From: Candidatus Kerfeldbacteria bacterium
Lineage (GTDB): Bacteria > Patescibacteriota > Patescibacteriia > UBA9570 > XYC2-FULL-38-9
DNA length: 64,000 bases
Reading direction: 5' to 3'
Assembly (NCBI GenBank): GCA_016182555.1
Contig: JACPGJ010000003.1
Location: 10,920 to 74,919 of the forward strand
The notes under the pieces were generated by a model, which saw only the letters and a program-made list of their open reading frames with translations, was not told the origin of the DNA and searched no databases. Shown here piece after piece: positions 1,971 to 50,217 of this stretch. Each line of letters begins with the position of its first letter. Position 1 is the first letter of the stretch. The position numbers and the translations under genes are program-made.

Positions 1971-1971
1971 T

Positions 1972-5166: not shown

Positions 5167-5221
5167 AAAAGTGAAAAAATGGAGCTAACTCCTCATTTTA
5201 ATATAAGCATTTTTGCATATC

Positions 5222-7854: not shown

Positions 7855-7864
7855 ACCGAGTGGT

Positions 7865-14531: not shown

Positions 14532-15272
14532 TTATTTATCAAGAAAGTTATATTTCACAATACACCACATGGCTTCAACACCATCTTTCCAGCCGATTTT
14601 TTTACCTTCGTCATAGGTGCGGCCATTATAAGAAATGGCTATTTCATAAATGCGGCATTTTCCAGCTTTCGACAGTTTTGCGAGGCGTGCAGTCATTTCT
14701 GGCTCAAAACCGAACCGCTTGGATTGCAGTTTTGGCAGAATTTCTTTCAGCATTTCTTTGGTGAACACTTTGTAACAGGTCTCCATATCGGTCAGGTTCA
14801 AGTTGGTACACATGTTGGAAAACATGGTAAGCACTTTATTGCCAACCGAATGCCAAAAATAGAGCACGCGGTGTGGGCGACCACTCAAAAAGCGTGAACC
14901 AAATACGGCATCGGCTTTCCCTTCAATGATTGGTCGAAGTAAATCAGGGTATTCATTTGGGTCATATTCCAAATCTGCGTCTTGCACAATCACAATATCG
15001 CCAGCGACATGTTCAAAACCCGTTTTCAACGCCGCGCCTTTCCCTTGATTCACCTCATGATGAACCACGGTATATTTGTCTTTGTATTTTTCTAAAATTT
15101 CGCGCGATTTGTCGCGGCTACAATCATTCACAAAAATGAGCTGTTTTTTTAAGCCCAAGGTATCAGTCGCTTCGACGCGCTCAATAATATGCTCTAATGT
15201 TCGCTCTTCGTTATAGACCGGAATAACAATGCTCACGGTAGAAAAATGTTTGGCGGAAGACATGGGAGGCAA
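14532..15272 (-). CDS. GT2 polyprenol-phosphate glycosyltransferase, DPM1-like catalytic domain without a membrane anchor
   Basis: VSIVIPVYNEERTLEHII...IFVNDCSRDKSREIL...IVIVQDADLEYDP (DPM1/GtrB-type GT-A). 246 aa. Confidence 0.75.
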   Translation of the reverse strand: MPPMSSAKHFSTVSIVIPVYNEERTLEHIIERVEATDTLGLKKQLIFVNDCSRDKSREILEKYKDKYTVVHHEVNQGKGAALKTGFEHVAGDIVIVQDADLEYDPNEYPDLLRPIIEGKADAVFGSRFLSGRPHRVLYFWHSVGNKVLTMFSNMCTNLNLTDMETCYKVFTKEMLKEILPKLQSKRFGFEPEMTARLAKLSKAGKCRIYEIAISYNGRTYDEGKKIGWKDGVEAMWCIVKYNFLDK

Positions 15273-15292
15273 TTAATAATACCAGAGCCATC

Positions 15293-16222
15293 TTACACAA
15301 TATGGCGGAAATATTCAATAGTTTTGCCTAATCCTTCTTCTAAAGCGATTTTGGGTTCCCAACCAAGCTCTTTTTTGGCAATGCTGATTTCTGGCTGCCG
15401 TTGTTTGGGGTCATCTTGAGGAAGTGGTTCGTAGACAATCTTGCTGGTGCTTTCCGGAATCATGCTGAGCACCTTTTCTGCGAGTTGCTTAATGGTAAAT
15501 TCACCTGGGTTGCCTAAGTTCACCGGGCCAATGATATGTTCTGTATTCATCATACGCACCATCCCTTCCACGACATCATCGACATATTGAAAACTGCGGG
15601 TTTGCGAACCATCGCCGTAGATGGTGATATCTTTGTTTTGCAGAGCTTGCACAATAAAATTGGAAACCACGCGGCCGTCATTTGGGTGCATATTCGGGCC
15701 GTAGGTATTGAAAATACGCACCACGCGAATATCCACTTGATGTTGGCGGTAATAATCGAAAAACAGGGTTTCGGCGCAGCGTTTGCCTTCATCATAGCAG
15801 GAACGAATGCCAATGGGATTGACGCGGCCCCAATAGGATTCGGGTTGTGGGTGCACTTCAGGGTCGCCGTATACTTCAGAAGTCGAGGCTTGGAGAATGC
15901 GGGCGCGGGTACGTTTTGCCAGACCCAACATATTAATGGCGCCGTGAACCGATGTTTTGGTTGTTTGCACTGGGTCAAACTGGTAGTGCACAGGTGAGGC
16001 TGGGCAAGCGAGGTTATAAATTTGATTGACTTCTACATAGAGCGGAAATGTGACATCATGGCGCATCACTTCGAAATGTTTGTTCTCCATGAGGTCCAGA
16101 ATATTACTTTTGTTGCCAGTAAAAAAATTATCAACACAGAGCACTTCATGCCCTTCTGAAAGTAACCGTCTGCATAAATGTGAGCCAATAAAACCAGCTC
16201 CTCCAGTGATTAATATTTTCAT
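15293..16222 (-). CDS. uxs: UDP-glucuronate decarboxylase (UDP-xylose synthase, UXS/ArnA-decarboxylase-like extended SDR)
   Basis: [41 protein letters not shown] is the UXS-type N-terminus. YxxxK is present (YDEGKRCAE). 309 aa. Confidence 0.8.
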
Positions 16223-16295: not shown

Positions 16296-16724
16296 ATGAA
16301 ACACCTATTTTTTCAAATGATGCGGTTCGGAGTGGTAGGGGTAGGGAACATGCTCCTCGACTTGTTGATTTACACGTTGCTCACGCGTACAAGTGATTTT
16401 TTCCAGCACTATTATCTTCTTGCTGCTTTTGTTGCGTTTATTATTTCGGCATCAAATAGCTATATTTGGAATAAGCGTTGGACATTCAAAGACAAGGTGC
16501 AATTCACCCATACACAGTTGATCAAATTTTATATTGCCTCGGCGATTGCGTTATCTATAAATGAAACAGTATTATGGATCCTTGTTCGTCATCTGGGCAT
16601 ATTTGATATTGTGGCAAAATTAATGGCTTCCATCTCTGCGGGTGGAATGAATTTCGTTTTACAGAAATTTTGGATTTTTCGCCTGCGCGCTATCAAACCG
16701 GAAACGCCAATGCAGGAACAATAA
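16296..16724 (+). CDS. GtrA-family membrane protein (polysaccharide biosynthesis/lipid-linked sugar translocation)
   Basis: 142 aa with 4 TM helices. N-terminal MMRFGVVGVGNMLLDLLIYTLL and C-terminal LQKFWIFR are typical of GtrA. Confidence 0.7.
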   Translation: MKHLFFQMMRFGVVGVGNMLLDLLIYTLLTRTSDFFQHYYLLAAFVAFIISASNSYIWNKRWTFKDKVQFTHTQLIKFYIASAIALSINETVLWILVRHLGIFDIVAKLMASISAGGMNFVLQKFWIFRLRAIKPETPMQEQ

Positions 16725-17579: not shown

Positions 17580-18530
17580 ATGACGAACAACTCATTTCGC
17601 CTTTCAGTCATTTTACCCATATTTAATGAAGCTGGCAGCATTCCAGAACTCGTGAAACGTTGTCGTGCAGCATTGAGTGTGTATGAGCAGTATGAATTAA
17701 TTTTTGTTGATGATCGGAGCAGCGATGATTCGTTTCAGTTATTGTCTCAGCTGGCAAAAGAAGACCCGACACACATTAAAGTGATTCGCTTTTCGCGAAA
17801 TTTTGGTCACCAAATAGCGATTACTGCTGGTTTGGATATTGCGTCCGGTGACGCGGTAGTGATTATGGATAGTGATTTGCAAGATCCCCCAGAATTGATT
17901 CCAGAGATGTTAGTGAAGTGGCAAGAAGGATATGAGGTAGTGTATGCACGTCGTCGTTCACGCCGTGATACTCCGTTTAAAAAAGCGACGGCATTTTTGT
18001 TCTATCGTATTCTACGCAAACTCGCCAATGTGGATATTCCAACTGATACCGGCGATTTTCGTTTAATGGATAAAAAGGTGGTGCAAGCGTTGCGTGGTAT
18101 GCGTGAACACTCTCGGTTTATGCGCGGGCTCACGTCGTGGACCGGTTTTCGTCAAACCCACATTTTTTTCGACCGCGATGATCGGAAACATGGAGAAACG
18201 CATTATCCGCTCGTGAAAATGGTTAAATTTGCGCTCGATGGTATTACCTCGTTCTCCCATATTCCTCTGCGTATGGCGACCTATGTGGGTTTCTTAAGTG
18301 CCTGTGTTGGGCTGACCGGTGGGTTGTACGCGTTTTATTGGCGTTTTTTCTTACCAGAGGAAACGGTTCCTGGGTGGACCACTATTGTCGTATCCGTTTT
18401 TTTCATCGGTGGGATTCAATTGATTATTTTAGGAGTCATTGGAGAATATATCGGGCGTATTTATACTGAATTGCAAGCTCGTCCGTTGTATATTGTGGAT
18501 AAAAAAATGAATCTTGACGGCGATGAATAA
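17580..18530 (+). CDS. GT2 polyprenyl-phosphate glycosyltransferase (ArnC/GtrB-like) with C-terminal TM helices
   Basis: LSVILPIFNEAGSIPELV...FVDDRSSDDS...VVIMDSDLQDPPELIP is the ArnC/GtrB pattern. Two C-terminal TM helices (GFLSACVGLTGGLYAF..., IVVSVFFIGGIQLIILGVIGEYIG). Confidence 0.8.
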   Translation: MTNNSFRLSVILPIFNEAGSIPELVKRCRAALSVYEQYELIFVDDRSSDDSFQLLSQLAKEDPTHIKVIRFSRNFGHQIAITAGLDIASGDAVVIMDSDLQDPPELIPEMLVKWQEGYEVVYARRRSRRDTPFKKATAFLFYRILRKLANVDIPTDTGDFRLMDKKVVQALRGMREHSRFMRGLTSWTGFRQTHIFFDRDDRKHGETHYPLVKMVKFALDGITSFSHIPLRMATYVGFLSACVGLTGGLYAFYWRFFLPEETVPGWTTIVVSVFFIGGIQLIILGVIGEYIGRIYTELQARPLYIVDKKMNLDGDE

Positions 18531-18927
18531 TGTGTTCGCGCTATTTCGCCAGTATCGGCAAATGATTATCTATATCATTATTGGGTGCACCGGAGCAACC
18601 TTGGATTTTATTATCTTCAGCTTGCTCATTCATTTTGATATTTTGCATTACGTGGTCGCGAATATCGTGAGCGTTTCTCTGGCGATTACGAATAATTTTT
18701 TGTTGAATGCATTTTTTAATTTCAAAATGCGTGATCAGTTTTGGAAACGGTTTTTTTCTTTTTATGCGATTGGGGTTTTGGGGCTCATTGTCACTTCTGC
18801 GTGTTTATATCTGTTTGTTGCGGTATTTCATTTTGAAGTGCATCTATCCAAGTTTTTGATCATCTTTGTGGCATTCTTGTTGCAGTATAACTTAAATAAA
18901 CGCTACAGCTTTAAACAATTTGCATAA
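18514..18927 (+). CDS. GtrA-family membrane protein
   Basis: 137 aa with 4 TM helices. IIIGCTGATLDFIIFSLLI and the LLQYNLNKRYSF tail. Overlaps the upstream gene by 17 nt. Confidence 0.7.
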   Translation: MTAMNNVFALFRQYRQMIIYIIIGCTGATLDFIIFSLLIHFDILHYVVANIVSVSLAITNNFLLNAFFNFKMRDQFWKRFFSFYAIGVLGLIVTSACLYLFVAVFHFEVHLSKFLIIFVAFLLQYNLNKRYSFKQFA

Positions 18928-18930
18928 CCT

Positions 18931-20250
18931 ATGAATAAGAAACATATCGGCATTATTGGGGGCGGATTAACAGGGATGACCGCGGCATTGGAACTGTTAA
19001 AAGATGGCCATGACATTACGATTATTGAAGGTGGATCGCAAACCGGCGGGCTTGCAGCCGGGTTTACATTTGAAGGTGCCAGCTTAGAACATGCTTACCA
19101 CCATGCCTTCAAAACCGATTATGATATTTTGGATTTGATTCAAGAATTAGAATTGAAGGACCAATTGAATTGGTTTGATAGCTCGATGGGTGTGTATTAC
19201 AACGGCCAATTATATCCCTTCCGCACTCCGATCGATTTACTGAAATTTCCGCCATTACGTTTTTGGAGTAAATTTCGTTTAGGCCTAACCGTATTGTATT
19301 TACAACACACAAAAAATTGGAAACGTTTTGAACACGTCACGGCAGCCGAATGGATGCGCAAGCATTGTGGTAAGCAAGCGTATGAAGTTATTTGGAAGCC
19401 GTTATTGCATGGCAAATTTCACCAATATGCTGACCAGGTATCTATGGCTTGGTTATGGGCCCGTATTCACATTCGCGCTAATTCAAAAGAAAAAGGGGAT
19501 TCGCGCGAGAAATTGGGGTATATGACGGGTGGGTTTCATACACTCATTCATGCATTGGAAGAGCGCTTACGCAAAGAAGGCGTGCAGATTCATTTGAATG
19601 AAAAAGTGCGCGGCGTGCGTACCGCAGAACAGGGCACGGTACAGGTAGAAACAGAACAGAAAACGTACACATTTGATGAAGTCATTTCGACGGTTTCTAC
19701 TCATCTTTTTTCACAAATGCTTGATTCAAAAGACACGACGTTAGCGAACTATAAAAAACAATTGGCGAGCGTGCAGTATTTAGGCGCAGCATTAGTCATT
19801 TTTTCTTCGGAACAATCGTTGAGCCCGTATTATTGGGTGAATGTGAATGATTCGGCTTCACCATTCTTAGCGTTCATTCAACATACGAATTTAGCACCGA
19901 CGAGTTGGTACAATAATCGGCAGGTGTATTATCTGGCGACATACGTTCCCCATGGTCATCGTTTTTTTACCACCGACGAAGCTGCACTGAAAGAAGAATT
20001 TTTTACCTATCTCAAAAAAATATTTCCTCAATTTTCCCCAGAACAAATACACAACACTCAGGTGATGCGTTTGCGGTATGCGCAACATATCGTGGATACG
20101 AACTACGCAGAAAAAATGCCGGCGCATGTTACGCCGATTCCGCACGTGTACCTTGCTAATTTTTCCCAAATTTTTCCAGAAGATCGCGGCATGAGTTATG
20201 CGATTCGCGAAGGTCGCAAGCAGGCGCAATTATTACGTGAACGATTATGA
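18931..20250 (+). CDS. FAD/NAD(P)-binding oxidoreductase (amine-oxidase / Glf-like Rossmann flavoenzyme family)
   Basis: N-terminal dinucleotide-binding GxGxxG (IGIIGGGLTGMTAALELL) followed by a conserved acidic residue (IIEGG). 439 aa. Sits in an operon between GtrA and GT-C genes. Confidence 0.6.
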   Translation: MNKKHIGIIGGGLTGMTAALELLKDGHDITIIEGGSQTGGLAAGFTFEGASLEHAYHHAFKTDYDILDLIQELELKDQLNWFDSSMGVYYNGQLYPFRTPIDLLKFPPLRFWSKFRLGLTVLYLQHTKNWKRFEHVTAAEWMRKHCGKQAYEVIWKPLLHGKFHQYADQVSMAWLWARIHIRANSKEKGDSREKLGYMTGGFHTLIHALEERLRKEGVQIHLNEKVRGVRTAEQGTVQVETEQKTYTFDEVISTVSTHLFSQMLDSKDTTLANYKKQLASVQYLGAALVIFSSEQSLSPYYWVNVNDSASPFLAFIQHTNLAPTSWYNNRQVYYLATYVPHGHRFFTTDEAALKEEFFTYLKKIFPQFSPEQIHNTQVMRLRYAQHIVDTNYAEKMPAHVTPIPHVYLANFSQIFPEDRGMSYAIREGRKQAQLLRERL

Positions 20251-21887
20251 ATTTTCGTAAGCGATTACAACAACAATCTGTTTATTGGTATGGAGCGATG
20301 GCAGTGATGGTGCTATTTGCCGTTTTTCAATTGGCCACTATCAATCAGTACGGAGTGAGTTGGGACGAAAAAGATGAGCATCTGCTCGCAAACGCGTTGA
20401 TGCAATATATAGAAACGGGGAATGTGAGTGAAATTACGTTAACCGGATATCCTGATTTACGACATTATGGTTCCTCAACGCCATTTTTGATGATGTTGTG
20501 TTCTGTGGTTTCGCGTCAATTTCTCGGGTTGAATGTGGCGAGTGCGAATCATCTGTATATTGTGTTGTTGGGTGTCGTGACTCTCGTGGCAACATATTTG
20601 TGGAGCCGGCGTGTATTTGGAAAAAGAGTCGCATTATGGAGTATTCTTTTTTTGGCGTTATTTCCGCAATTTATTGCTCATGCTCAGTATAACCCTAAAG
20701 ATATTCCCCAAACAGCATATATTGCACTGACGTATTATTTTTTCTATCGGTGCTACCATGATCGAAAATTCATTTTTGCACTACTGGCTGGCGTGGTTTA
20801 TGGTATTGCCTTGTCTACCGTGGTTTCAGTCTTGATTGCGCTACCTATATTTTTTGGCAGCTACGTGCTTTTTATTCTTTTTCAAGACCCCGTTTATCGT
20901 CGTGCTGATTGGAAGCAGTACCTTGGAAAAGACGCCGTATTATTTTTGGTATTTGCTGCCACTGCAGCGCTTACGATGTATGCCACCTGGCCACTCATGT
21001 GGACAGAACCGACTATTTTTATGGACGCCGTGCGCCTGTTTCAACACCATGATTGGAATGGCACGGTGTTGTACTTAGGGACTGTCTCTTATGCCGCTGA
21101 GTTGCCCTGGCATTATGCGCCGTTGTATCTCTTTATTGTTACGCCGCTGTCTACAATCATTTTTTTTGTGTTTGGGCTAGTGTATGCCGGCAAGCAGGTC
21201 TTCAAGCGGGTGCATCTTTCTGCAGCTCACCAAGAAATGACGGGCACAGTGACTGTTCATTTAACCGCGGTATTTCGCTATGGGTCTTTACTATTGTGGG
21301 CGTTGATACCATTGGCGGTGTTTATGTTACCTGGTGCAGTGAATTATGATGGCATTCGACATTTTTTTATGGCTATTCCACCACTCATGATTCTTGCTGG
21401 TATTGGATTACATGCGGTTATTGAGCGTCTCGCCAGTTTGTCTGTGCCGTACAAACGCGTGCTACCTATTGCCATTATTTGCGTGTTTTTATTTTCAATT
21501 GGTGCACAAATTGTACAAATTCATCCGTATGAAGGATCGTATATGAATGAAATTGTTCGTACCGTGATCCCTAAGCACGTTGAAGATTTTTTTGAAGTAG
21601 AGTATTGGGGACCATCCTACCGCGAAGGAGTTAAGTGGCTGAATGCCAATGCTTCACAGAAATCTCGTGTTTGCATCCCGTTTGCGCCACATCTTATTGA
21701 TGCCTACCATACACGCAAAGATCTGTCTTTTGGTTGTGACCAGCCATATAGTTATGTGATGTATTTTACGCGTGGAGGAAAGCGTAATACGCCACAGGAA
21801 TTAACAGATCATGTTGATCAAGCACGACTCGTGTATACCATTTCACGCCAAGGTGCAGATTATTTATATATTTATGAAACGAAGTAA
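20247..21887 (+). CDS. GT-C-fold membrane glycosyltransferase (ArnT/PMT-like), paralog 1
   Basis: 546 aa, polytopic. First periplasmic loop carries the Asp-Glu motif (VSWDEKDE). About half the residues are identical to the downstream gene over FPQFIAHAQYNPKDIPQ...NGTVLYLG. Confidence 0.65.
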   Translation: MNFRKRLQQQSVYWYGAMAVMVLFAVFQLATINQYGVSWDEKDEHLLANALMQYIETGNVSEITLTGYPDLRHYGSSTPFLMMLCSVVSRQFLGLNVASANHLYIVLLGVVTLVATYLWSRRVFGKRVALWSILFLALFPQFIAHAQYNPKDIPQTAYIALTYYFFYRCYHDRKFIFALLAGVVYGIALSTVVSVLIALPIFFGSYVLFILFQDPVYRRADWKQYLGKDAVLFLVFAATAALTMYATWPLMWTEPTIFMDAVRLFQHHDWNGTVLYLGTVSYAAELPWHYAPLYLFIVTPLSTIIFFVFGLVYAGKQVFKRVHLSAAHQEMTGTVTVHLTAVFRYGSLLLWALIPLAVFMLPGAVNYDGIRHFFMAIPPLMILAGIGLHAVIERLASLSVPYKRVLPIAIICVFLFSIGAQIVQIHPYEGSYMNEIVRTVIPKHVEDFFEVEYWGPSYREGVKWLNANASQKSRVCIPFAPHLIDAYHTRKDLSFGCDQPYSYVMYFTRGGKRNTPQELTDHVDQARLVYTISRQGADYLYIYETK

Positions 21888-23457
21888 GTTGTTGAATTTT
21901 TCCACAGCTGCTTATTTGCTGATTGTACTTTTTTTTATCGTGAATGTGGTGACGTTGAAGCAGTATGGCATGACATACGATGAACGGAATTATGCCATGA
22001 TCGGCCAGATGAATGTGGAATATTTTCATACGCTGGATCGTTCACAAATTCACCCGTTAGATGATCTGATGATTTATTATGGACCAGCGTATCACATTGT
22101 TCAACAAGTGTTTGGTTTATTTGCGCAGGCGGTGTTTCATTTAGGGTATATTGATGCCACACATCTTTTTTTGGTATGTACTTCTACCGCCATGTTATTG
22201 GTGGTTTTTTTCTTTGCTCGGTCATTATTCCGCCCATCGGTTGGTTTGTGTACGGTTGTCTTGCTCATGCTGTTTCCACACTTTATTGCCCACGCCCATT
22301 ATAACCCGAAAGATTTACCCGAAGCCGAGATGGTGACCATTAGTTTGTATCTTTTTTATCGGCTCTATAGCACAAAGCGATATGTGTACGCTATTTTAGC
22401 CGGTGCGGTTTACGGTTTTGGTTTAGCCACAGTCGTGAGCATTCTTTTAGCCGTGCCAATATTTGTTGCGAGTTATCTATCTTTTTTGGTTTTTCAAGAA
22501 CGAATATATCAACGCAAAGATTGGAGGGTATATTTATTAAAAGATGTATTATTATTTTTTGTATTTGCTATCGTGCTCATGTTCACAATGGTTTTGAGTT
22601 GGCCACTGTTATGGAGCGATCCACACATATTTGTAGAATCTATTCGCTTGTTTCGTCACCATAGTTGGAATGGGCAGGTTTTATATTTTGGCCAAACCTA
22701 TCTTGGTTCTGAAATTCCGTGGCATTATGTGCTGCTATCTCTATTTATGGCTACTCCACTGTTACCATTTTGCTTTTTTATTGTTGGTCTGGTTCGGTCT
22801 GGAAAACAGATACTCCATCGGAAGGAAATGTTTCCATATGCGTTCATACTGTGTTGGGCCGCTCTGCCATTGATCATATTTATGTTGCCTGGTGCTGTGA
22901 ATTATGATGGAATACGACATTTTTTTATGGCTATTCCACCATTGATGATTCTCGCTGGTGTGGGGATGGATGCGGTGATACGCGGGTTAAAAAATATATT
23001 ACACACTCGACCCGTGCTTCTTCCAACTATTTTTTGTATAATCGTCGTCGGTTGGTTGGTTAATGAATCACGCCAAGTACACCCGTATGAAGGTGCCTAT
23101 TTTAATGAATTGGTGCGTCTCATCATTCCTGCACATATCGAAACTGTGTTTGAAGTGGAATATTGGGGCGCATCTTACCGAGAAGGTGTTGACTGGTTGA
23201 ATACACATGCCGCACCAAATGCGGTGGTCTGTGTGCCTGATGGTATGCATATGGTTGAAATGTATCCACGCCGTCTAGATATTCTCTTGCATTGTGGTGA
23301 TGACTCTACGTATGTCATGTATTATACGCGTGGTGGTCCAAGAAAAATTCCTGCGCCTATGTTATTGAACCAACAATCAACGCAGCGTGTCTACACTATC
23401 AGCCGGCAACATTCGGATTATCTGTATATTGTTTCTATTTCATCAGTATCGCAGTAA
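21874..23457 (+). CDS. GT-C-fold membrane glycosyltransferase (ArnT/PMT-like), tandem paralog 2
   Basis: The start MKRSKLLNF at 21874 overlaps the upstream stop by 14 nt; the ORF-track 5' extension from 21811 is rejected. FPHFIAHAHYNPKDLPE...NGQVLYFG is collinear with paralog 1. The loop has a DE motif (MTYDERN). Confidence 0.65.
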   Translation: MKRSKLLNFSTAAYLLIVLFFIVNVVTLKQYGMTYDERNYAMIGQMNVEYFHTLDRSQIHPLDDLMIYYGPAYHIVQQVFGLFAQAVFHLGYIDATHLFLVCTSTAMLLVVFFFARSLFRPSVGLCTVVLLMLFPHFIAHAHYNPKDLPEAEMVTISLYLFYRLYSTKRYVYAILAGAVYGFGLATVVSILLAVPIFVASYLSFLVFQERIYQRKDWRVYLLKDVLLFFVFAIVLMFTMVLSWPLLWSDPHIFVESIRLFRHHSWNGQVLYFGQTYLGSEIPWHYVLLSLFMATPLLPFCFFIVGLVRSGKQILHRKEMFPYAFILCWAALPLIIFMLPGAVNYDGIRHFFMAIPPLMILAGVGMDAVIRGLKNILHTRPVLLPTIFCIIVVGWLVNESRQVHPYEGAYFNELVRLIIPAHIETVFEVEYWGASYREGVDWLNTHAAPNAVVCVPDGMHMVEMYPRRLDILLHCGDDSTYVMYYTRGGPRKIPAPMLLNQQSTQRVYTISRQHSDYLYIVSISSVSQ

Positions 23458-23458
23458 C

Positions 23459-25402
23459 ATGTTTCAACGTATCTATCATTGGTTCAAGATATATTGGAAG
23501 GATATTGTCGTTATATGCATTATCTATAGCCTGATATTATTTCTTTCCTCGTTTGCACCGATCAGATTTGCGGATGCGTATAACGCCGTCACTGCAGAAA
23601 ATGTGGCCCATTCAGGAAAATATATATCACCATTAGGTGATGAATTCGATGTGTTTCTTTCTACTGGGCCTGCCGTTATTCTTCCGATTGCTTTTTCATT
23701 TGTATTGTTTGGTTCATCCGTGCTGGCAATTCGAGCAGTGATGGTTGCCTACACCGTTGCGTTTTTTGTTCTGTGGTTTTTGTTGATGGGTCAGTGGTTT
23801 CCCGCATGGGGAAAAATAAAAAAATACCTTGTGTTGATTTTTTCCGGATTCCTTCTTTTGAAAGTGAATATTCTTGGAGGAGATATTTTTTATAATGTTC
23901 TTGGTCAAATGCCTGGATTTTTTTATCTTTTTTTAGCGTTCTATCTTCTCACAAAATACCAACGCCGCCCATCATTGCTTTTAGTGATCTTTGCCGCTAT
24001 TTCAATTGGGTTGGCTATACAATCAAAATTATTTTTTGTGTTGGCGGTTCCCTCACTGTTCTATTTATTATTTGTTCGTGCGAATGGAAAGTGGCAATCG
24101 TGGAAGAAATGGATAGGGCACAGTAGTATAGCCATTATTTTTGCATTATTACCAACAATTCTTTTTCTTGTATGGCAGTGGTGTGCGCTGGGAACAGATC
24201 AATTTTTACGCACACAGTATGCGCTATATAAAACCATGAAATATGTGCCAGATTCTTTAATTCAAATTTCTGCGGTGAACCTTATGAAACAACATGTACA
24301 TACACTGGAGCAGATGTTACATGTTGATTGGTATATTTTTATTATTTTTCTTTTATCGGTTTTTGTTGGCGTGTATTATGCGTGGAGAAAAAATGTATAT
24401 ACCATTGTTGCATTGTCAATATTTTTATTTCTCTATAGTGGTTGGTGGTTTTTTCGTGATACCGGAAATCGAGACCGGCATACACTCTATTTGCTTTTGC
24501 CATTTGTTGTATTATGCGTCTGGCAATGGTGTTCAAGAGGTATGTGGCGAGTTGGTCGTACCCTTGCTTTGCTATCTATTACTATTATCCTTATTCGCGG
24601 TGTGCATCTTCATTCCGTGTTGGTGGAAGAACCAATAGCGACTCTTTATGCACAACAACAGCTTGTTGATTATTGGAATAACACGATGTCGCAACAGAAT
24701 ATTTCCGTGGTGTATGCGGGATTAGATGTCCCCGCAGATATTGCTTTTTTAGTGCATCGTCCGACATGGAATAGTGTACGTGATATGGACATGGTTGAGC
24801 GTGAATCTGGCAATATCCATTATCATATGTTAACACCGATTGGTCATGATTATGATCCGTTTGTTTATCATTATACACTAGATAATCACTGTATTCAGCC
24901 ATTGCTGTATAACGCTGGCAACTATAGTATTTGTACAGCATATAATAATTCGTATTCAGAAGAAGAATATCAGTATATGCTCCAAAGAAAAGAGACGATT
25001 TGTGAGGAATTGAAACAAGGATATCTTGGATCGTGTGCAAAACAAATCGGCGATGGGTTTATTATTACACTTTCTGATTTTCTCACTTTAGGAAAAGATT
25101 TTGCAGCATGGATAAAAATGAAACCAGGTGCTCATACACTCATTCTTGATGGTAAGATGCTGCATGGTATTCCCCATCAGAATATGCATATATTTATTAA
25201 TGATCAACTCGTATCGGAATATGCTGGAGACGAAGAGGAGTATTTTCGTATATCGATTGATCTAGATACCTATCAGCAAGGCGAATTAATTAAAGTGCGT
25301 ATAGTGAATGATGAAGTATTTTCTCCAATTTATTCATGGCAATTTTTTAATGTGCATTATGATCAACGAAGCATAGAACTATATAATATTGTTCAAGAAT
25401 AG
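23459..25402 (+). CDS. Large polytopic membrane protein, probable third GT-C-like transferase with a C-terminal soluble domain
   Basis: The start MFQRIYHWF at 23459 is directly after the upstream stop. About 12 predicted TM helices, then a C-terminal domain of about 230 aa. Early loop with GDEFDV. Confidence 0.5.
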   Translation: MFQRIYHWFKIYWKDIVVICIIYSLILFLSSFAPIRFADAYNAVTAENVAHSGKYISPLGDEFDVFLSTGPAVILPIAFSFVLFGSSVLAIRAVMVAYTVAFFVLWFLLMGQWFPAWGKIKKYLVLIFSGFLLLKVNILGGDIFYNVLGQMPGFFYLFLAFYLLTKYQRRPSLLLVIFAAISIGLAIQSKLFFVLAVPSLFYLLFVRANGKWQSWKKWIGHSSIAIIFALLPTILFLVWQWCALGTDQFLRTQYALYKTMKYVPDSLIQISAVNLMKQHVHTLEQMLHVDWYIFIIFLLSVFVGVYYAWRKNVYTIVALSIFLFLYSGWWFFRDTGNRDRHTLYLLLPFVVLCVWQWCSRGMWRVGRTLALLSITIILIRGVHLHSVLVEEPIATLYAQQQLVDYWNNTMSQQNISVVYAGLDVPADIAFLVHRPTWNSVRDMDMVERESGNIHYHMLTPIGHDYDPFVYHYTLDNHCIQPLLYNAGNYSICTAYNNSYSEEEYQYMLQRKETICEELKQGYLGSCAKQIGDGFIITLSDFLTLGKDFAAWIKMKPGAHTLILDGKMLHGIPHQNMHIFINDQLVSEYAGDEEEYFRISIDLDTYQQGELIKVRIVNDEVFSPIYSWQFFNVHYDQRSIELYNIVQE

Positions 25403-25483
25403 GTTAAATAGCTTATCGTTTTTCTTGCATCTATTGAAGGTTTCCGATAGTATATCTGTATTCAATAATAGATGAATATTCAT

Positions 25484-26422
25484 ATGAAAATACTTGTCAC
25501 TGGCGGCGCAGGGTTTATTGGGTCGCATATCGTGGATGCGTTGGTTCAAGCTGGGCACCAGGTAAGTGTGCTGGATAATTTTAGTACCGGCAAACGGGAA
25601 TGGGTGAATGATGCTGCCGTGGTGCATGAAGCCGATATTACAGATGCAGCGCGGGTGAAAGAGGTTATTGCCGTGGCATGCCCAGAAATTATTTACCATT
25701 TTGCCGCACAGATTGATGTACGGAAATCGGTCTCTGATCCGGTGGTGGATGCACAGCAGAATATTATTGGTACACTAAATGTTTGTGAAGCGGCGCGTAC
25801 GGCGCTTCCAGTTGGCACGCCGCGAAAAATTATTTTTGCGGCAACGGGTGGTATGATGTATGGTGATACCGATATTCGTCCGACACCAGAACAGGTGGAA
25901 CCACGTCCGATTTCACCATATGCTATTTCAAAGTTATCGGTAGAAAAATATTTGTATTATTACAAAATGGTATACGGTATTGATTATGTTTCTTTGCGAT
26001 TTGCGAATGTCTATGGTCCGCGTCAGAATCCGCATGGAGAAGCGGGTGTGGTGGCCATATTTATTAACAAAATGATGCGTGGTGAACAACCGATTATTAA
26101 CGGCGATGGTACGCAAACACGTGATTACGTATTTGTGCATGATGCGGTAGATGCAGCAATGCGTGCGATGAACACTCAGACTCTATCCGGATATTATAAT
26201 GTGAGTACCGGTATCGAAACCGATGTGAATAGTATTTTTGATCTGATCAATGCCGCGTTTGATAAAAAATTTACTGCGCAGCATGGTGAAGCCAAAGCTG
26301 GCGAACAACGAACGAGTGCACTCGATTATTCAAAAATTTCACAAGAAACTGGTTGGAAACCACGAGCCGTGCTTGCAGAAGGGGTGATCCAAACGGTGAA
26401 GTGGTTTTGTGAACAAATATAG
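25484..26422 (+). CDS. NAD-dependent nucleotide-sugar 4-epimerase (GalE-like; possibly UDP-xylose or UDP-glucose 4-epimerase)
   Basis: [36 protein letters not shown]; YxxxK present (YAISKLSVE). 313 aa. Confidence 0.75.
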   Translation: MKILVTGGAGFIGSHIVDALVQAGHQVSVLDNFSTGKREWVNDAAVVHEADITDAARVKEVIAVACPEIIYHFAAQIDVRKSVSDPVVDAQQNIIGTLNVCEAARTALPVGTPRKIIFAATGGMMYGDTDIRPTPEQVEPRPISPYAISKLSVEKYLYYYKMVYGIDYVSLRFANVYGPRQNPHGEAGVVAIFINKMMRGEQPIINGDGTQTRDYVFVHDAVDAAMRAMNTQTLSGYYNVSTGIETDVNSIFDLINAAFDKKFTAQHGEAKAGEQRTSALDYSKISQETGWKPRAVLAEGVIQTVKWFCEQI

Positions 26423-26497: not shown

Positions 26498-27916
26498 TTA
26501 TTTCAGAGGCACAAGTTTGCCATTGGGTTGTAATTGAAAAATGTAATGGAGGCTATTTTTTTCAATTGTCGATACATGTGCTATGTCAATTGGAATTGCC
26601 TTAACAGTTGGGTTGTTATAGGCAATTCGTAATATTGATCCACCATTAAATATAAATAGTTCTGTAGGAAAATCTGCTGGGAACACAAAATAGAATGTTG
26701 TATTGTCACTTATATGAGGAACAAACGCTTGTACTTGTTGAGTCACCCGATCTAAACGTTCTGTAAAGTTACCATGATTTTTTGCTACCACAGTGAATTG
26801 ATTATATGTGGTATAAGCAAAAAAAAGTAACCAGAAACTGAGAAGAGTATATGGAATATATATTCTCTTTTTACATAAGGAAGTTAGATAATCAATACAG
26901 ACTGCAAATACAATATACAGCCCGATAATAGGCAACATGAGGTAATAACTATAGATATGGAATGGGAGAATAAGGACTGGTAAAAGTGTGCCACCTGCCC
27001 AACCAGCTCCAAACAGCATTACTTTTCTTCTATCAGCATTTGCAAAAAATGCTACTATTATTGGAATGAATAAGCTAACGGCTACAATAAAAAGATTTGA
27101 TTTAACCAACAATATTCCATCTATTGCCCATGCTATATATGTACGAATATGTTCGCTCAGAAAAGAACCAAATTCAAGAGAATATGCACCTTCATTTGGA
27201 TAGATCAAAAATTGTGATCTGAGAAGAAAAAATAGGATTGTCACAATAACAAATGGACCAAATTTGCGCAGTATTTCTTTTATAGAGTGATGACGTTCTA
27301 CAGTTAAATGCAGAAGGAGTAAAACTCCAGGTAAGGTGATAGCCATCTCTTTTGACAGTAGAGCCAAGATAAAAGAGAATATTGATAAAAAATACTTCGT
27401 GGAAAGAGTTCTATACCCAGAATACATATAGAATAAGAGAGAAGATAAAAAGAATAGTATACTCAATAACTCTTGACATACAGATATCCAGCGTTGAGAA
27501 TCAAAGCTAATTGGATTCATAATATACAACAATGCAGCAGCGGCGCTAATATATTTTTTTAATCCAAATTTTGCTAAAATGAGATATAGCAGCACACCAT
27601 TGATTGCTAAAAGAATAGTATTGGAGATGTGAAAATAAATAGGATGCGGCCCAAACATCAGCTGGAGAGTACCGAAATACACATTTGTTGATATTGGTCT
27701 ATAAAATATCGTATTTTGACTGGTGGAAAATAGATTCAGCAAATCAGCAAATGATCCTATAGTAGATCGTTCCACGAAAATATAATCATCCAGAAAAAAG
27801 GATTGATCAAAGGTATGGTGATAAAAGAGTAGAGTAACAATAAGGAATATAGGAATAATACATATCAGCCATCGTATATTTGCTGTATATCGCTTCAACA
27901 GAGTAGAAACTGTCAT
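26498..27916 (-). CDS. Polytopic membrane protein, GT-C-like; last gene of the UbiA/HAD/SDR operon
   Basis: 472 aa, more than 10 TM helices. Acidic first loop (FFLDDYIFVERST). Lies directly downstream of the SDR gene on the minus strand. Confidence 0.5.
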   Translation of the reverse strand: MTVSTLLKRYTANIRWLICIIPIFLIVTLLFYHHTFDQSFFLDDYIFVERSTIGSFADLLNLFSTSQNTIFYRPISTNVYFGTLQLMFGPHPIYFHISNTILLAINGVLLYLILAKFGLKKYISAAAALLYIMNPISFDSQRWISVCQELLSILFFLSSLLFYMYSGYRTLSTKYFLSIFSFILALLSKEMAITLPGVLLLLHLTVERHHSIKEILRKFGPFVIVTILFFLLRSQFLIYPNEGAYSLEFGSFLSEHIRTYIAWAIDGILLVKSNLFIVAVSLFIPIIVAFFANADRRKVMLFGAGWAGGTLLPVLILPFHIYSYYLMLPIIGLYIVFAVCIDYLTSLCKKRIYIPYTLLSFWLLFFAYTTYNQFTVVAKNHGNFTERLDRVTQQVQAFVPHISDNTTFYFVFPADFPTELFIFNGGSILRIAYNNPTVKAIPIDIAHVSTIEKNSLHYIFQLQPNGKLVPLK

Positions 27917-27953
27917 ATTATAGAACTTCCGTATTTAGCTAAATGATCACAAA

Positions 27954-28997
27954 TTAGAAGAATTTTTTGGCTAGGCCAAGAATACCTTGTTTCCATGGCA
28001 CACGGTGGGAAACGCCAGATTTTCCTTCAAATTCTTTTTGATGGTCAATGTACCATTGCAAATTTCGAAGGAGCGCATCTTTGTTTGAATATTTTGGTAC
28101 GTACCCCAGAATGCGTTCTGCTTTTTCAATAGAAACAAACGAATCTTCACAAGCAGTTTCATACACCCATTTATATAATGGAGAGAGGTGAAAAAATTCC
28201 AGTACTCGTAAAGCCCAAATCATGGGTGCCGCAGGAAAGCCAATAATTTTTTTTCCAAACCCAGCTTTGTCTAACACGACTTGATAATCTTCTTTCATGG
28301 TAGTGAATTCCTTTGCACCAATATTGAATGTATCGTTCACTATGCTGGTTTCTTTTGTCGCACATAAGTAAATCGCATCACATAAATCTTCCACCGCAAG
28401 TAATTGATAGCGATTATGACCACTCCCGATCATGGGAAAATTTCGGCCATCCAACGCCCAATCATACAACAACGCAAAGACGCCTAAACGCTCCGGCCCA
28501 ATAAAAGATTTTGGACGAATAATGGGTACAACCATGCCATCTTTACGTGCCTGAACACAAGCTTCTTCAGCAAGAATTTTTGCTTCTCCATACGGGCCAA
28601 CGCCAACAAGCTTATCGGTTTCAAATAACGGATGATGATCTGGGATACCGTACACTGCCGTAGATGAAATATGCACGACCCGTTTTACACCGTGTTTTTT
28701 TGCCGATTCCAAAATAATGCGTGTACCCTCTACGTCAGTAGAATAAATTTCTTCTTTGGAATACAATGGGAGTGCAGCGGCGCAATGAACAACAATATCC
28801 ACTCCTTCCATTATTTTGTCTACCGTGTCTTTATGGCGAATATCACCAATGACCGACTGGATACGATCTTTTTCCGGATAATCAAATTCGAGCAAATCAA
28901 GAGAGCGAACGGTGTGCCCGTTTTCCAAAAGAAAGCGAATCAGATTAATCCCTAGAAATCCTGATCCGCCGGTAATGAGGTAGGTCTGTGATGCCAT
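27954..28997 (-). CDS. NAD-dependent epimerase/dehydratase (extended SDR, 3-beta-HSD-like)
   Basis: YLITGGSGFLGINLIRFLLENGHTV (Rossmann). Catalytic YGEAKILAE (YxxxK). 347 aa. Confidence 0.7.
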   Translation of the reverse strand: MASQTYLITGGSGFLGINLIRFLLENGHTVRSLDLLEFDYPEKDRIQSVIGDIRHKDTVDKIMEGVDIVVHCAAALPLYSKEEIYSTDVEGTRIILESAKKHGVKRVVHISSTAVYGIPDHHPLFETDKLVGVGPYGEAKILAEEACVQARKDGMVVPIIRPKSFIGPERLGVFALLYDWALDGRNFPMIGSGHNRYQLLAVEDLCDAIYLCATKETSIVNDTFNIGAKEFTTMKEDYQVVLDKAGFGKKIIGFPAAPMIWALRVLEFFHLSPLYKWVYETACEDSFVSIEKAERILGYVPKYSNKDALLRNLQWYIDHQKEFEGKSGVSHRVPWKQGILGLAKKFF

Positions 28998-29005
28998 AGA
29001 AAAAA

Positions 29006-29362
29006 TTATGATTTAGGTAATGAAATAAGAATAATGCCCGATAATAATAGCAATATTCCGCTGAGCTGTACACCGCTCAGTGTCTCTTTGAGATAGAATG
29101 TGGAAAAGAGAGTAATAATCAAAAAACCCCCACCGACCATCAGCGGATATGCGAGGGAGAGTGGTAATTTGGAGAGCGCTACGGAATAAAAAATCACATT
29201 CAGGGCGAAGAGTATCAGCCCAAGGATAAGTACGTAATTTTTCATCACGGCTTCGATCATTCCGACTTCTTTAAAATAATGCAAATTTTTAGAACCAACC
29301 TTGAGTGAAATGTTTGCGACGGCGTTGAGCGTGAGTGCAGTCACAAGATAAGCATATCCCAT
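29006..29362 (-). CDS. Small 4-TM DMT/SMR-family protein, ArnE/ArnF-like putative lipid-linked-sugar flippase subunit
   Basis: 118 aa with four hydrophobic helices. The size and topology match ArnE/ArnF/EamA-like small transporters. Located between the HAD and SDR genes. Confidence 0.5.
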   Translation of the reverse strand: MGYAYLVTALTLNAVANISLKVGSKNLHYFKEVGMIEAVMKNYVLILGLILFALNVIFYSVALSKLPLSLAYPLMVGGGFLIITLFSTFYLKETLSGVQLSGILLLLSGIILISLPKS

Positions 29363-29367
29363 AATAT

Positions 29368-29844
29368 TTATAGATAATGATTGAATAGTCTGAACATAAC
29401 ATCATCAACCGCATTGATTATTTTAATAATCGGGCGATCTTTTCCATGCTTCCTTTTCACTCGAATAAATTGGGCGCCTATACGCTTTGCAAATAGGGCA
29501 TCGGTCAAAAATTTATCGCCAATAACGGTGACCGGCTGTTGCGAAAACTCGGTGGGAAGGCATTGCAGCACACGACGACTGGGTTTTTTACAATCTGGGT
29601 TGATGATTGATGTTTTTGTAATCCGTTCTATTTCTTTGCAGCGAGGTCGATTCCGTGAATTTGTACATAAATAGACAGTATTATGTTCTTTCAGTTCTTC
29701 CAATTTTTTTAATGCGGGCAGTGTGACCAATACCGCATTGTCTGGAACCAATGTTCCGTCAATATCCAACAAAATAACTGAATCACGCAATGACTGCACA
29801 TTCAGCTCTTCAAAATAGTATTCAGCCATAGAGGTAAAATACAC
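29368..29844 (-). CDS. HAD-IIIA-type phosphatase (YqeG-like)
   Basis: Motif I ILLDIDGTLVPD (DxDGT), motif II VYLCTNS, motif IV VIGDKFLTDALFAKRIG (GDxxxTD). 158 aa. Overlaps the UbiA gene by 23 nt. Confidence 0.6.
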   Translation of the reverse strand: MYFTSMAEYYFEELNVQSLRDSVILLDIDGTLVPDNAVLVTLPALKKLEELKEHNTVYLCTNSRNRPRCKEIERITKTSIINPDCKKPSRRVLQCLPTEFSQQPVTVIGDKFLTDALFAKRIGAQFIRVKRKHGKDRPIIKIINAVDDVMFRLFNHYL

Positions 29845-30724
29845 CAGTCATCCACACCATCCAGGTGAGCACCGTACAGAGCAACCACCGATCATGAAAT
29901 AACATTTTTTCTGGTGCTTCCCCCTGTTCAAACTGATGAATAATATACAAATATCGAAACATGCCAAAAAAGACAAAAAATGAGGAGTAGATCATATACG
30001 GTTTATCTACCTCTACTGTGTATAAACTGTAACTGAGAATAACGCCGGTAATAACGACCGTGAGAATATGATCCAAGAATGAATCAGTATATTTGTTGAG
30101 AACAACGCGTGTCTGGTGTTCACTGCCAGCAACTGCTTTAAATTCAGCGCGTCGTTTCCCAATAATGAGAAATAATGCCAGAAAAAAAGTGACCAAAATG
30201 AGCCACGGAGAGATATAAATATTTAGCAGTTCTCCACCGGCTTTGACACGCAGTAAATACATAAATGCGACAAAGAAAATTTCAATGACTGGAATGTGTT
30301 TTAGAAAGAAGGAATAACTGATATTCATGCAGAAATACAGAAAGAGAATAATATCCACTCGTGCATTTAATTGGGTAGCGAGTGCAATAACAATGAGTAA
30401 CAACAAGAACGCAATCCACTGACCTTGGCGAATACTTATTTGCCCGGCAGCAATGGGACGAAACTTTTTTTTCGGATGATGTCGGTCTTTTTCATAATCC
30501 GCAATATCGTTAATGATATAAATACTGCTGGCCAAAAATGAAAATGCAAAAAATAATAGTGCCGTGTGATAGACATTCTGCACACTAAAAAATTCAACGG
30601 CAAAAAATAATGGTGCAAAGATTAACAGATTTTTAATCCAATGATTGGCACGCATTTCTTTTACGATAGCGTGCGTGGTTGATTGACGTGGTTGCATAGG
30701 TGATAAATGTCTCGAAGGTATCAT
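29822..30724 (-). CDS. UbiA-family prenyl-phosphate transferase with the decaprenyl-phosphate 5-phosphoribosyltransferase (DPPR synthase, Rv3806c-type) signature
   Basis: WIKNLLIFAPLFFA ... YIINDIADYEKDRHHPKKKFRPIAAGQIS. This is the NDxxDxxxD motif plus the K(K/R)FRPIA(A/S)G block characteristic of DPPR synthases. 8–9 TM helices. Confidence 0.65.
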   Translation of the reverse strand: MIPSRHLSPMQPRQSTTHAIVKEMRANHWIKNLLIFAPLFFAVEFFSVQNVYHTALLFFAFSFLASSIYIINDIADYEKDRHHPKKKFRPIAAGQISIRQGQWIAFLLLLIVIALATQLNARVDIILFLYFCMNISYSFFLKHIPVIEIFFVAFMYLLRVKAGGELLNIYISPWLILVTFFLALFLIIGKRRAEFKAVAGSEHQTRVVLNKYTDSFLDHILTVVITGVILSYSLYTVEVDKPYMIYSSFFVFFGMFRYLYIIHQFEQGEAPEKMLFHDRWLLCTVLTWMVWMTGVFYLYG

Positions 30725-31887: not shown

Positions 31888-31888
31888 G

Positions 31889-32821: not shown

Positions 32822-32826
32822 ATTGT

Positions 32827-33798: not shown

Positions 33799-33852
33799 AC
33801 AATTTTTTGGCCTACTGGTCAACGAGAGAGTTTTTTCGTATACTGCTTGGGT

Positions 33853-38863: not shown

Positions 38864-39423
38864 GTACACAGCAACCACTGCGGGCGGAAGATATTGCACC
38901 AGAATTCCGTCAACAAATTTTCAAACAAGATTATAGTAAAAAACCAACCATTGATGGCGTCCGCATTGTGGATTTGCCAAGTTTTTCTGATGATGGTGGA
39001 TATTTTTTAGAGCTTACTCGTTTTGTTACTGGGCATCCAACGGCATTTCCAGATTTTGAACTCAAACAAATGAATTATTCTGAAATGGATCCTGGTGTGG
39101 TGAAAGCAGCGCATTTGCATTTTCAGCAAGAAGATATTTGGTTTGTTCCACCCACTCAAAAATTACTCATTGGGTTAATGGATTGTCGTGATACATCACC
39201 AACAAAAGGAATGAAGATGCGATTTGTCATGGGAGCAAAAAAAGCAAAATTGCTCTACATTCCTCGCGGTGTTGCGCATGGCGCAGCAAATTTGTGGCAA
39301 CGACCTGCAGCAATTATCTATTTCGTTAATAATGTATTTGATGCTGATCCAGAAAAAACAGATGAACATCGTTTACCGTGGGATGTGTTTGGTGCGGATT
39401 TTTGGGAAATTCAAAAAGGATAA
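38860..39423 (+). CDS. rmlC: dTDP-4-dehydrorhamnose 3,5-epimerase
   Basis: Cupin with DDGGYFLEL, AHLHFQQEDIWFVPPTQKL and PRGVAHG blocks. 187 aa. Confidence 0.85.
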   Translation: MSTQQPLRAEDIAPEFRQQIFKQDYSKKPTIDGVRIVDLPSFSDDGGYFLELTRFVTGHPTAFPDFELKQMNYSEMDPGVVKAAHLHFQQEDIWFVPPTQKLLIGLMDCRDTSPTKGMKMRFVMGAKKAKLLYIPRGVAHGAANLWQRPAAIIYFVNNVFDADPEKTDEHRLPWDVFGADFWEIQKG

Positions 39424-39435
39424 TATCATAGAGCG

Positions 39436-50212: not shown

Positions 50213-50217
50213 AGTCG

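Follow-up and report, generated by a model that had tools for sequence, protein, structure and literature searches.

What does a flavoenzyme do between a putative flippase for lipid-linked sugars and a row of membrane-bound glycosyltransferases? The question arises from an operon at positions 17580-26422 of a 64,000-nucleotide stretch of a Candidatus Kerfeldbacteria genome (GenBank assembly GCA_016182555.1, contig JACPGJ010000003.1), the whole of which is called the window here. The original prediction had described seven plus-strand open reading frames (ORFs) that overlap or abut, encoding an ArnC-like family 2 glycosyltransferase (GT2), a GtrA protein, a Rossmann flavoenzyme, three membrane proteins resembling glycosyltransferases of the GT-C fold class, and a terminal 4-epimerase. 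All seven ORFs were found where they had been placed, co-directional and tightly packed, and this gene content was borne out, the GT2 being ArnC/PgfS-like and the epimerase a GalE-like short-chain dehydrogenase/reductase (SDR). The type of system is already known; the new part is the conserved coupling of the flavoenzyme to the GT2 and to GtrA, gene fusions included. The genes of the operon are as follows.

17580..18530, plus strand: GT2 polyprenyl-phosphate glycosyltransferase, GtrB/ArnC/PgfS-like, 316 aa, with a C-terminal hydrophobic anchor
18514..18927, plus strand: GtrA-family small membrane protein, putative lipid-linked-sugar flippase, 137 aa
18931..20250, plus strand: flavin adenine dinucleotide (FAD) flavoenzyme of family NF005560/PRK07233, with a fold like that of phytoene desaturase (PDS), protoporphyrinogen oxidase (PPO) and UDP-galactopyranose mutase (UGM), 439 aa, soluble or monotopic
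20247..21887, plus strand: GT-C glycosyltransferase paralogue A (PMT_2; annotated as GT39), 546 aa
21874..23457, plus strand: GT-C glycosyltransferase paralogue B, 527 aa
23459..25402, plus strand: divergent GT-C with an ArnT-like membrane core and a C-terminal beta-sandwich, 647 aa
25484..26422, plus strand: extended-SDR sugar epimerase, GalE-like and dependent on nicotinamide adenine dinucleotide (NAD), 312 aa

The GT2 and GtrA genes overlap by 17 nt, GtrA and the flavoenzyme are separated by 3 nt, the flavoenzyme overlaps paralogue A by 4 nt and A overlaps B by 14 nt; the third membrane protein follows B after 1 nt, and a gap of about 80 nt precedes the SDR gene. The starts at 21874, 23459 and 25484 lie inside the mechanically longest ORFs, the first two agreeing with the NCBI protein models (527 aa and 647 aa). 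On its 5' side the operon is flanked by a 162-bp divergent intergenic region and on its 3' side by a 75-bp convergent gap. Pattern scans for promoters and terminators gave counts at the level of shuffled background (37 against 35.3, and 12 against 10.4) and so no transcript boundaries.

The GT2 matches PF00535 in Pfam (E=9.5e-33) and aligns end to end with two NCBIfam models, PgfS, which is its best named match (277 bits, below the equivalog cutoff of 500), and ArnC (204 bits, also below cutoff); its transmembrane (TM) segment, at residues 269-287, is C-terminal. The GtrA protein matches PF04138 (E=1.2e-19, 71 bits against a cutoff of 26.1) and has hydrophobic segments that fit about four TM helices. 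The SDR matches PF01370 (Epimerase, E=2.9e-61) and scores 170 bits with the GalE model TIGR01179 (cutoff 262) and 177 bits with RmlB (cutoff 365). The GxxGxxG and YxxxK motifs can be read in its sequence, which lacks the dehydratase TDE motif, and by these features it is classed as an extended-SDR epimerase-like protein. Because these domains are joined by two PMT_2 domains, a third GT-C and invariant loop-1 acids, with the GT2 being ArnC/PgfS-like and the genes abutting, the operon is very probably, to judge by its domain content, an extracytoplasmic glycosylation system of the GtrB/GtrA/GT-C type.

The flavoenzyme contains an Amino_oxidase domain (PF01593, E=1.5e-31) and passes the cutoff of one model only, NF005560, which is named 'hypothetical protein' (498 bits against 252, with residues 5-437 aligned to positions 2-430 of the 435 in the model). 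It falls below the cutoffs for HemY (TIGR00562, 49.5 against 97.85 bits, the alignment being limited to residues 3-173, the N-terminal FAD domain), PDS (TIGR02731, 42.2 against 569.4), CrtI (TIGR02734, 36.5 against 238.1) and HpnE (TIGR03467, 93.4 against 283), and the Pfam search gave no match to PF03275 (GLF). Neither a TM segment nor a signal sequence is predicted. The fold is about equally near to PDS, PPO and UGM, the first two of which are monotopic membrane flavoenzymes. In a profile search of the PDB the best and sole full-length match was rice phytoene desaturase (E=4.6e-18, residues 4-408), and bacterial UGMs matched over the N-terminal FAD motif only (E about 2e-9, residues 6-96). 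Identity to PDS, HemY and eukaryotic-type UGM is only 15-20%. The prospect of a housekeeping PPO or phytoene desaturase, which the original prediction had named as the outcome that would speak against it, did not materialise, since the scores are far below the PPO, PDS, CrtI and HpnE cutoffs. On sequence grounds, the conclusion is that the flavoenzyme is neither HemY, PDS, CrtI nor a classical Glf, and that it belongs to a conserved uncharacterised family, NF005560/PRK07233.

This family is strongly conserved, with a mean column identity of 62% over 22 sequences. Its most conserved motifs, WEPLLxGKF and MAWLWARI, lie with an invariant Arg and Lys in a helical region that may correspond to the membrane-binding, substrate-entry domain of PPO and PDS. 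Many of the invariant residues of the family are polar or aromatic (His, Arg, Lys, Trp, Tyr). Homology to DprE1 was considered and excluded, because the fold is Amino_oxidase/PDS-like and that of DprE1 is of the vanillyl-alcohol oxidase (VAO) type, FAD_binding_4.

It is the gene neighbourhoods of the family that connect it to lipid-linked sugars. Members were counted in at least 566 GTDB species genomes, and the groups represented are Patescibacteria, Verrucomicrobiota, Cyanobacteria, Actinomycetota, Chloroflexota and Proteobacteria. The survey covered the best-matching 80 flavoenzyme loci, 67 of them with enough upstream flank, and an orthologous GT2 was counted at 200 bits or more. High-GC actinobacterial neighbourhoods were judged by phmmer matches only, because naive ORF calling there produced spurious antisense ORFs. 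Directly 5' of the flavoenzyme, an orthologous GT2 (270-455 bits) is present in 26 of the 67 loci; GtrA adjoins the flavoenzyme in 25, and 36 have one or the other. Metagenomic contexts repeat the same GT2-(GtrA)-flavoenzyme core. In two metagenome-assembled genomes, one of Paceibacterota (L044:9545-11335) and one of Saccharibacteria (L057:9512-11326), GtrA and the flavoenzyme are fused in frame; the GtrA domain comes first, and some 20-25 linker residues separate it from a full PRK07233-type flavoenzyme. In Nibricoccus and Chloroflexota, the protein directly beside the flavoenzyme is not GtrA but an LPG_synthase_TM protein (MprF flippase-like, UPF0104; L026:11320-12297, L075:8793-9953, L061:8997-9998).

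The placement of the flavoenzyme between GtrA and the GT-Cs had been described as unusual. This proves misleading, in that the GT2-(GtrA)-flavoenzyme unit is conserved across phyla and the GT-C genes are a variable add-on. The large membrane proteins that accompany the unit differ between lineages and include PMT_2-like proteins, DUF2298 proteins (near the flavoenzyme in Nibricoccus and in the Dojkabacteria locus L005) and families without a name. Such variation of the GT-C genes beside a constant module fits a conserved donor that is used by varied transferases. In two of the closest relatives, L087 and L006, the order is a gene like the third GT-C, GT2, GtrA, flavoenzyme, SDR, GT2 and a large membrane protein; paralogues A and B and the epimerase that ends the present operon are lineage-specific insertions into this module.

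A mechanism can be proposed from these observations. Each of its steps is taken from what the families are expected to do, the direct observations being the domain identities, the GT-C fold, the conserved synteny and the fusions. The GalE-like SDR would supply or adjust a sugar, which the membrane-anchored GT2 would move from its nucleotide donor onto polyprenyl phosphate at the cytoplasmic face. The PRK07233-family flavoenzyme, cytoplasmic and membrane-associated next to GtrA, would then act on the sugar-loaded lipid and so produce the donor that is finally used. The chemistry that we prefer is a change to the sugar moiety, which would be either an oxidation or epimerisation at a ring carbon, similar to that of DprE1(/DprE2) but carried out in a PDS/PPO-type fold and possibly completed by an SDR, or a flavin-mediated, redox-neutral isomerisation. 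GtrA would carry the donor to the outer face, and there the three GT-Cs would pass the sugar to different surface acceptors, either a glycan or a Ser/Thr-rich protein.

Taken as a whole, this scheme is the explanation of the sequence data that we modestly favour. The part of it that has the flavoenzyme act on a lipid-linked intermediate at the inner face of the membrane is reasonably probable: the location is suggested because there is no TM or signal sequence and because in the fusions the flavoenzyme follows GtrA, whose C-terminus is presumed to be cytoplasmic, and action on a lipid-linked sugar gains support from the conserved GT2/GtrA synteny and from the same fusions. The more specific suggestion that the sugar moiety is oxidised or epimerised is a tentative one. 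The original prediction had offered a Glf-like mutase or an oxidase of a lipid-linked sugar, and of this the lipid-linked sugar has been strengthened by the synteny and fusions, while the classical Glf has been weakened by the lack of a PF03275 match. There is a precedent for the participation of the SDR, in that a GalE-like SDR, ORF13 of C. youngae, can epimerise a lipid-linked sugar (PMC11127046).

Several observations weigh against this scheme. At the detection threshold used, about 31 of the 67 loci show no GT2 and no GtrA next to the flavoenzyme, in Shapirobacteria the flavoenzyme adjoins elongation factor G and rml genes (rmlC and rmlD in L049), and an SDR is found within 3 kb of the flavoenzyme in just 15 of the 80 loci. 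To our knowledge, enzymes with the PDS, PPO or monoamine oxidase fold do not oxidise sugar hydroxyls. As far as we know, Patescibacteria also generally have no quinones or respiratory chains; a net oxidase would therefore need another acceptor, which argues for a reaction that is redox-neutral or internally balanced. Searches of the literature turned up no paper or biochemical datum on the NF005560/PRK07233 family or on its association with GT2 and GtrA; an article on the gsf GtrA cluster of Actinoplanes had no bearing on it. Finally, the sole full-length PDB profile match is phytoene desaturase, an enzyme that works on an isoprenoid chain, and this favours a different substrate, namely the lipid tail.

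On that alternative, the flavoenzyme would saturate, isomerise or desaturate the polyprenyl tail (as PDS, CRTISO or RetSat do with their substrates), giving a dedicated pool of carrier for the GT2/GtrA pathway. The rice phytoene desaturase match and a partial similarity to HpnE (93 bits) both suit it, and the coupling to membrane lipids seen in the fusions and the flippase-like neighbours suits it equally well. We nevertheless consider it unlikely, as the PDS, CrtI and HpnE scores are far below their cutoffs (42/569, 36/238 and 93/283), the abundance of polar and aromatic residues among the invariant ones would fit a sugar-phosphate ligand, which is polar, better than a purely hydrocarbon tunnel, and a general lipid-tail enzyme would hardly track one GT2 orthogroup so closely. 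Nor do we know of any bacterial carrier lipid modified in this way. The same fold would also allow a UGM-like, redox-neutral mutase that converts pyranose to furanose on the nucleotide sugar: the SDR would, for instance, make UDP-Galp, the mutase would make UDP-Galf from it, and the adjacent GT2 would immediately capture this disfavoured product as polyprenyl-P-furanose, the donor for the GT-Cs. A redox-neutral reaction suits a family that is common to anaerobes and aerobes, the fold is near to UGM, adjacency to a GT2 recalls the mycobacterial glf-glfT2 pair, and a GalE-like gene closes the operon; moreover, the organism would use furanoses, since the neighbouring cluster (26498-30724) probably makes pentofuranose donors. 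This alternative is rather improbable, in view of the missing PF03275 match and of UGM alignments that cover residues 6-96 only, against a full-length alignment for PDS. The GtrA fusions and flippase-like neighbours moreover point to a membrane lipid as substrate and not to a soluble nucleotide sugar, and proximity of a GalE-like gene is not conserved.

The neighbouring cluster suggests a further role, that of the missing DprE1-type oxidase in its UbiA/phosphoribose pathway, where the flavoenzyme would convert polyprenyl-P-ribose to polyprenyl-P-arabinose together with the SDR of that cluster. The cluster does encode a UbiA protein of the decaprenyl-phosphoribose (DPPR) synthase class, a phosphatase of the haloacid dehalogenase (HAD) superfamily, a small multidrug resistance (SMR) protein and an SDR, with no FAD_binding_4 homologue of DprE1, and the gene order is analogous to mycobacterial Rv3789-Rv3795. 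Across the survey, a UbiA homologue is near the flavoenzyme in only 2 of the 80 loci, and the recurrent partner is GT2/GtrA; the closest relatives L086, L087 and L006 have the GT2-flavoenzyme pair and lack UbiA; and in C. youngae a single GalE-like SDR is enough to epimerise the pentofuranose (PMC11127046). This role is thus largely rejected and can be called quite improbable. Least credible of all, to the point of being scarcely worth maintaining, is that the flavoenzyme has a housekeeping role as protoporphyrinogen oxidase or phytoene desaturase, or that the membrane proteins are O-antigen ligases, polymerases or transporters, or both. Many homologues are annotated 'protoporphyrinogen oxidase' by JGI, and Pfam finds nothing in three of the five membrane proteins. 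Against this stand the PPO score for TIGR00562, confined to the N-terminal FAD domain, the PDS and CrtI scores far under cutoff, the conserved glycosylation synteny and the GtrA fusions. The membrane proteins gave no Wzy_C or transporter matches; paralogues A and B contain PMT_2 domains and the third protein is GT-C by homology and fold, so that for these three a non-glycosyltransferase identity, which had been named in advance as a possible refutation, did not emerge.

The scheme with a lipid-linked sugar as substrate can be set against systems that have already been described. The three-component logic of the GtrABC type (GtrB as GT2, GtrA, and GtrC as GT-C) has been summarised (PMC11194591 and PMC8035078). 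The present operon resembles it, and also CsbB/GtcA/YfhO of Firmicutes, in having an anchored GT2, a GtrA and a GT-C with an acidic loop-1 motif encoded together, and differs in having three GT-Cs in place of one, an FAD flavoenzyme added between GtrA and the GT-Cs, and an added SDR; none of the described Gtr systems has a flavoenzyme component. In gene content the closest system is the S. mutans Pgf operon for protein O-glycosylation (PgfS, PgfE, PgfM1/PgfM2; PMC12041528), which likewise combines one GT2 with several GT-Cs and an SDR resembling a 4-epimerase. Its GT-Cs are YfhO-family proteins and those described here are PMT_2/ArnT-like, and it has neither GtrA nor a flavoenzyme. From the Arn pathway come the full-length ArnC match of the GT2 and ArnT as the best structural match of the third GT-C. 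The ArnD deformylase of that pathway is a precedent for modification of a sugar on its lipid, the modifier here being, on our proposal, a flavoprotein; the operon lacks ArnA, ArnB and ArnD, and would use GtrA as flippase in place of an SMR pair.

In logic the closest counterpart is the mycobacterial locus Rv3789-Rv3795, which encodes the GtrA-like Rv3789, the flavoenzyme DprE1, the SDR DprE2, AftA and EmbC/A/B. Both loci combine GtrA, a flavoenzyme, an SDR and several GT-Cs that include tandem paralogues, and by analogy a shared function may be suggested. The parts are not the same: DprE1 has the VAO/FAD_binding_4 fold and is not homologous to the PDS/PPO/UGM-type flavoenzyme, the mycobacterial lipid-linked sugar comes from phosphoribosyl pyrophosphate via UbiA in place of a nucleotide-sugar donor used by a GT2, and the GT-Cs are Emb/Aft proteins and not PMT_2-like. 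PDS and HemY, for their part, serve pigment and haem biosynthesis, in contrast to the glycan context of the flavoenzyme. The mycobacterial arabinan pathway is summarised in a commentary that also mentions FAD-dependent oxidoreductases, without analysis, in elaborate Bacillus pentofuranose systems (PMC11194591).

The GT-C proteins themselves repay closer analysis. Both paralogues match PF13231 (PMT_2), with 40.2 bits for A and 26.5 bits for B against a cutoff of 26.1. They had been predicted to be paralogous, and they are, with identities at 231 of 529 positions (44%, E=4e-164). The strings quoted in support were all present, in the form LFPxFIAHAxYNPKDxP and RLFxHHxWNGxVLYxG, as was the Asp-Glu motif of loop 1, which reads WDE in A and YDE in B. 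Paralogue A has about 12 hydrophobic segments and W-D40-E41 in loop 1. In a family alignment of 30 members (A3), D40 is invariant, and E41 is conserved at 90% or more, as are NPKD and DGxRHFF; paralogue B keeps YDE, YNPKD and DGIRHFF. Because the conserved motifs of the family are kept in both copies, both are probably active enzymes.

The duplication had also been called recent, and this could not be upheld. Nucleotide identity between A and B is 55%, and the checks that had been proposed, dN/dS and copy number in relatives, were both run. Synonymous sites are saturated (pS=0.69, dS about 1.9, dN=0.53), and dN/dS is uninformative beyond saturation. A neighbour-joining tree places A with P0122, a protein from another metagenome, in a clade that excludes B (99 of 100 bootstraps). 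The subfamily is rare, with 62 word-sharing matches among 5.8 billion proteins, and each of the four further contexts that were inspected has one copy, with no flavoenzyme adjacent. At L090:1-198 and 6317-11635, a relative of A and B is preceded by two membrane proteins of the sulfatase/phosphodiesterase family, and about 10 kb from it the edge of the contig carries another gene of the Amino_oxidase family. The duplication is thus old, and the tandem pair is either an old duplicate kept in this lineage or the result of a separate gain of B. Retention of translationally coupled, catalytically intact paralogues makes the pair compatible with a heterodimer, by analogy with Pmt1-Pmt2 or EmbA-EmbB.

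The third membrane protein (23459..25402) has no Pfam match even at E<=10, and a word-indexed homologue search returned only the protein itself. An exhaustive HMMER search found 220 relatives. Among the 40 that were aligned, 20 carry PMT_2, and others GT87, PMT, TMEM260-like or Glyco_transf_22 (GT22) domains, all of these being GT-C families. Profile comparison with the A/B family by hhalign gave a probability of 97.9% (E=3e-13) and lined up its loop-1 FDxAYN with the WDE motif; D38 is nearly invariant (at least 90% of sequences). The AlphaFold2 model has a pLDDT of 85, and the top Foldseek matches are GT-C structures only, with ArnT first and then STT3, DPY19, Emb, ALG12/9, Pmt4 and AftB. Transitive homology, profile comparison and predicted fold together establish it as a GT-C enzyme. 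Residues from about 548 to 646 are modelled as a C-terminal beta-sandwich, which Foldseek matches to the sugar-binding domains of BcsB and EclA, and it is probably a carbohydrate-binding domain. The GT-C ORF12 of C. youngae also bears a carbohydrate-binding module (PMC11127046).

Two further GT-C candidates flank the operon. The protein at 26498-27916 has no Pfam match, and hhalign against the GT-C profile gave 95.5% (E=1.4e-8 over 136 columns), which is supportive. The protein at 12393-14531, also without a Pfam match, reached 88% against one GT-C profile (A2) and 8% against the other (A3). Of the five GT-C-like proteins that had been counted, four are therefore supported (A, B, the third protein and 26498-27916), and 12393-14531 is left with its two discordant values. 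The plus-strand ORF 33847-35349 was tried as a sixth and rejected as not GT-C-like. As for the density of these genes, which had been called exceptional, it is high, and comparable to that of the mycobacterial AftA-EmbCAB locus.

Beyond the operon, the window is a dense envelope-glycan island. The principal features are the following, those of the second module having been identified with Pfam and NCBIfam.

30-3321, plus strand: fused restriction-modification enzyme (HSDR_N_2, N6_Mtase, Eco57I-type methylase), then a specificity-subunit-like ORF
5213-12302, plus strand: Wzt-type ABC transporter ATPase with a Wzt_C glycan-binding domain, DUF4915 protein, GT2, GT4, GT2
12393-14531, minus strand: second module, large membrane protein
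14532-15272, minus strand: second module, soluble GT2
15293-16222, minus strand: second module, SDR resembling UDP-xylose synthase (UXS) and ArnA
16296-16724, plus strand: second module, second GtrA
26498-30724, minus strand: polyprenyl-phosphoribose (pentofuranose)-type cluster with UbiA, HAD-IIIA phosphatase, SMR, SDR and GT-C-like protein
30742-33939, minus strand: GT4, ArnC/PgfS-like GT2 (full-length, 162 bits to ArnC) and GalE-like SDR (199 bits)
37787-41255 and 42230-43495: dTDP-rhamnose genes rmlA, rmlC, rmlB and rmlD, then a PEGA-domain protein and MurA
50218-51213, minus strand: PilM-type type IV pilus assembly gene, within the minus-strand ORF run 49120-57479

In the Kerfeldbacteria-like loci L087:6569-15159 and L006:6440-15141, an orthologous SDR, GT2 and membrane protein follow directly 3' of the flavoenzyme on the same strand. 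It follows that the minus-strand block 12393-16222 is part of the ancestral module, inverted in the window. L087 also has a UDP-glucose dehydrogenase gene nearby, which suggests a pentose branch derived from UDP-GlcA.

In the cluster 26498-30724, the UbiA protein passes the NF008978 model for decaprenyl-phosphate phosphoribosyltransferase (224 bits against 207), the HAD-IIIA phosphatase is a separate gene, the SMR protein resembles ArnE/ArnF and the extended SDR is HpnA-like. The cluster resembles the systems for pentofuranose transfer that Kelly et al. described in 2024, with its UbiA, phosphatase, SDR and candidate GT-C, and differs in the split phosphatase and in having an SMR protein as candidate flippase in place of a MATE protein. 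The genes at 30742-33939 may form a fourth polyprenyl-phosphate sugar synthase set, and those at 5213-12302 indicate, by their domains, an ABC-transporter-dependent polysaccharide pathway beside the lipid-linked sugar systems. Pilins are acceptors of GT-C enzymes elsewhere, as with TfpW and D-Araf in P. aeruginosa, and by analogy type IV pilins, which would be encoded about 25 kb from the GT-C pair, are candidate acceptors here.

Lipid-linked extracytoplasmic glycosylation shapes bacterial surfaces, recognition by phages and hosts, and drug targets, DprE1 being a leading target in tuberculosis. That a flavoenzyme is tied to the GT2/GtrA pair in many loci, and fused to GtrA in some, suggests an enzymatic step on lipid-linked sugars that has gone unrecognised. 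We tentatively propose, as one possibility, that NF005560/PRK07233, a widespread class of flavoenzymes, is a fourth component of GtrB/GtrA/GT-C systems, which at the membrane face remodels the polyprenyl-phosphate-linked sugar before it is flipped, either as a non-homologous functional analogue of DprE1 or as an isomerase that interconverts pyranose and furanose, or epimers, of the lipid-linked sugar. The question is directly testable, as there are culturable carriers of the flavoenzyme in Saccharopolyspora, Thermomonospora, Geodermatophilus, Nibricoccus and Cyanothece. The window holds at least three and possibly four parallel lipid-linked sugar systems in about 22 kb, in a group, the Patescibacteria, whose epibiotic lifestyle depends on the cell surface. 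If the fourth-component proposal is true, surface sugars that lack a nucleotide-sugar precursor would have a new pathway, and one that is prominent in Patescibacteria.

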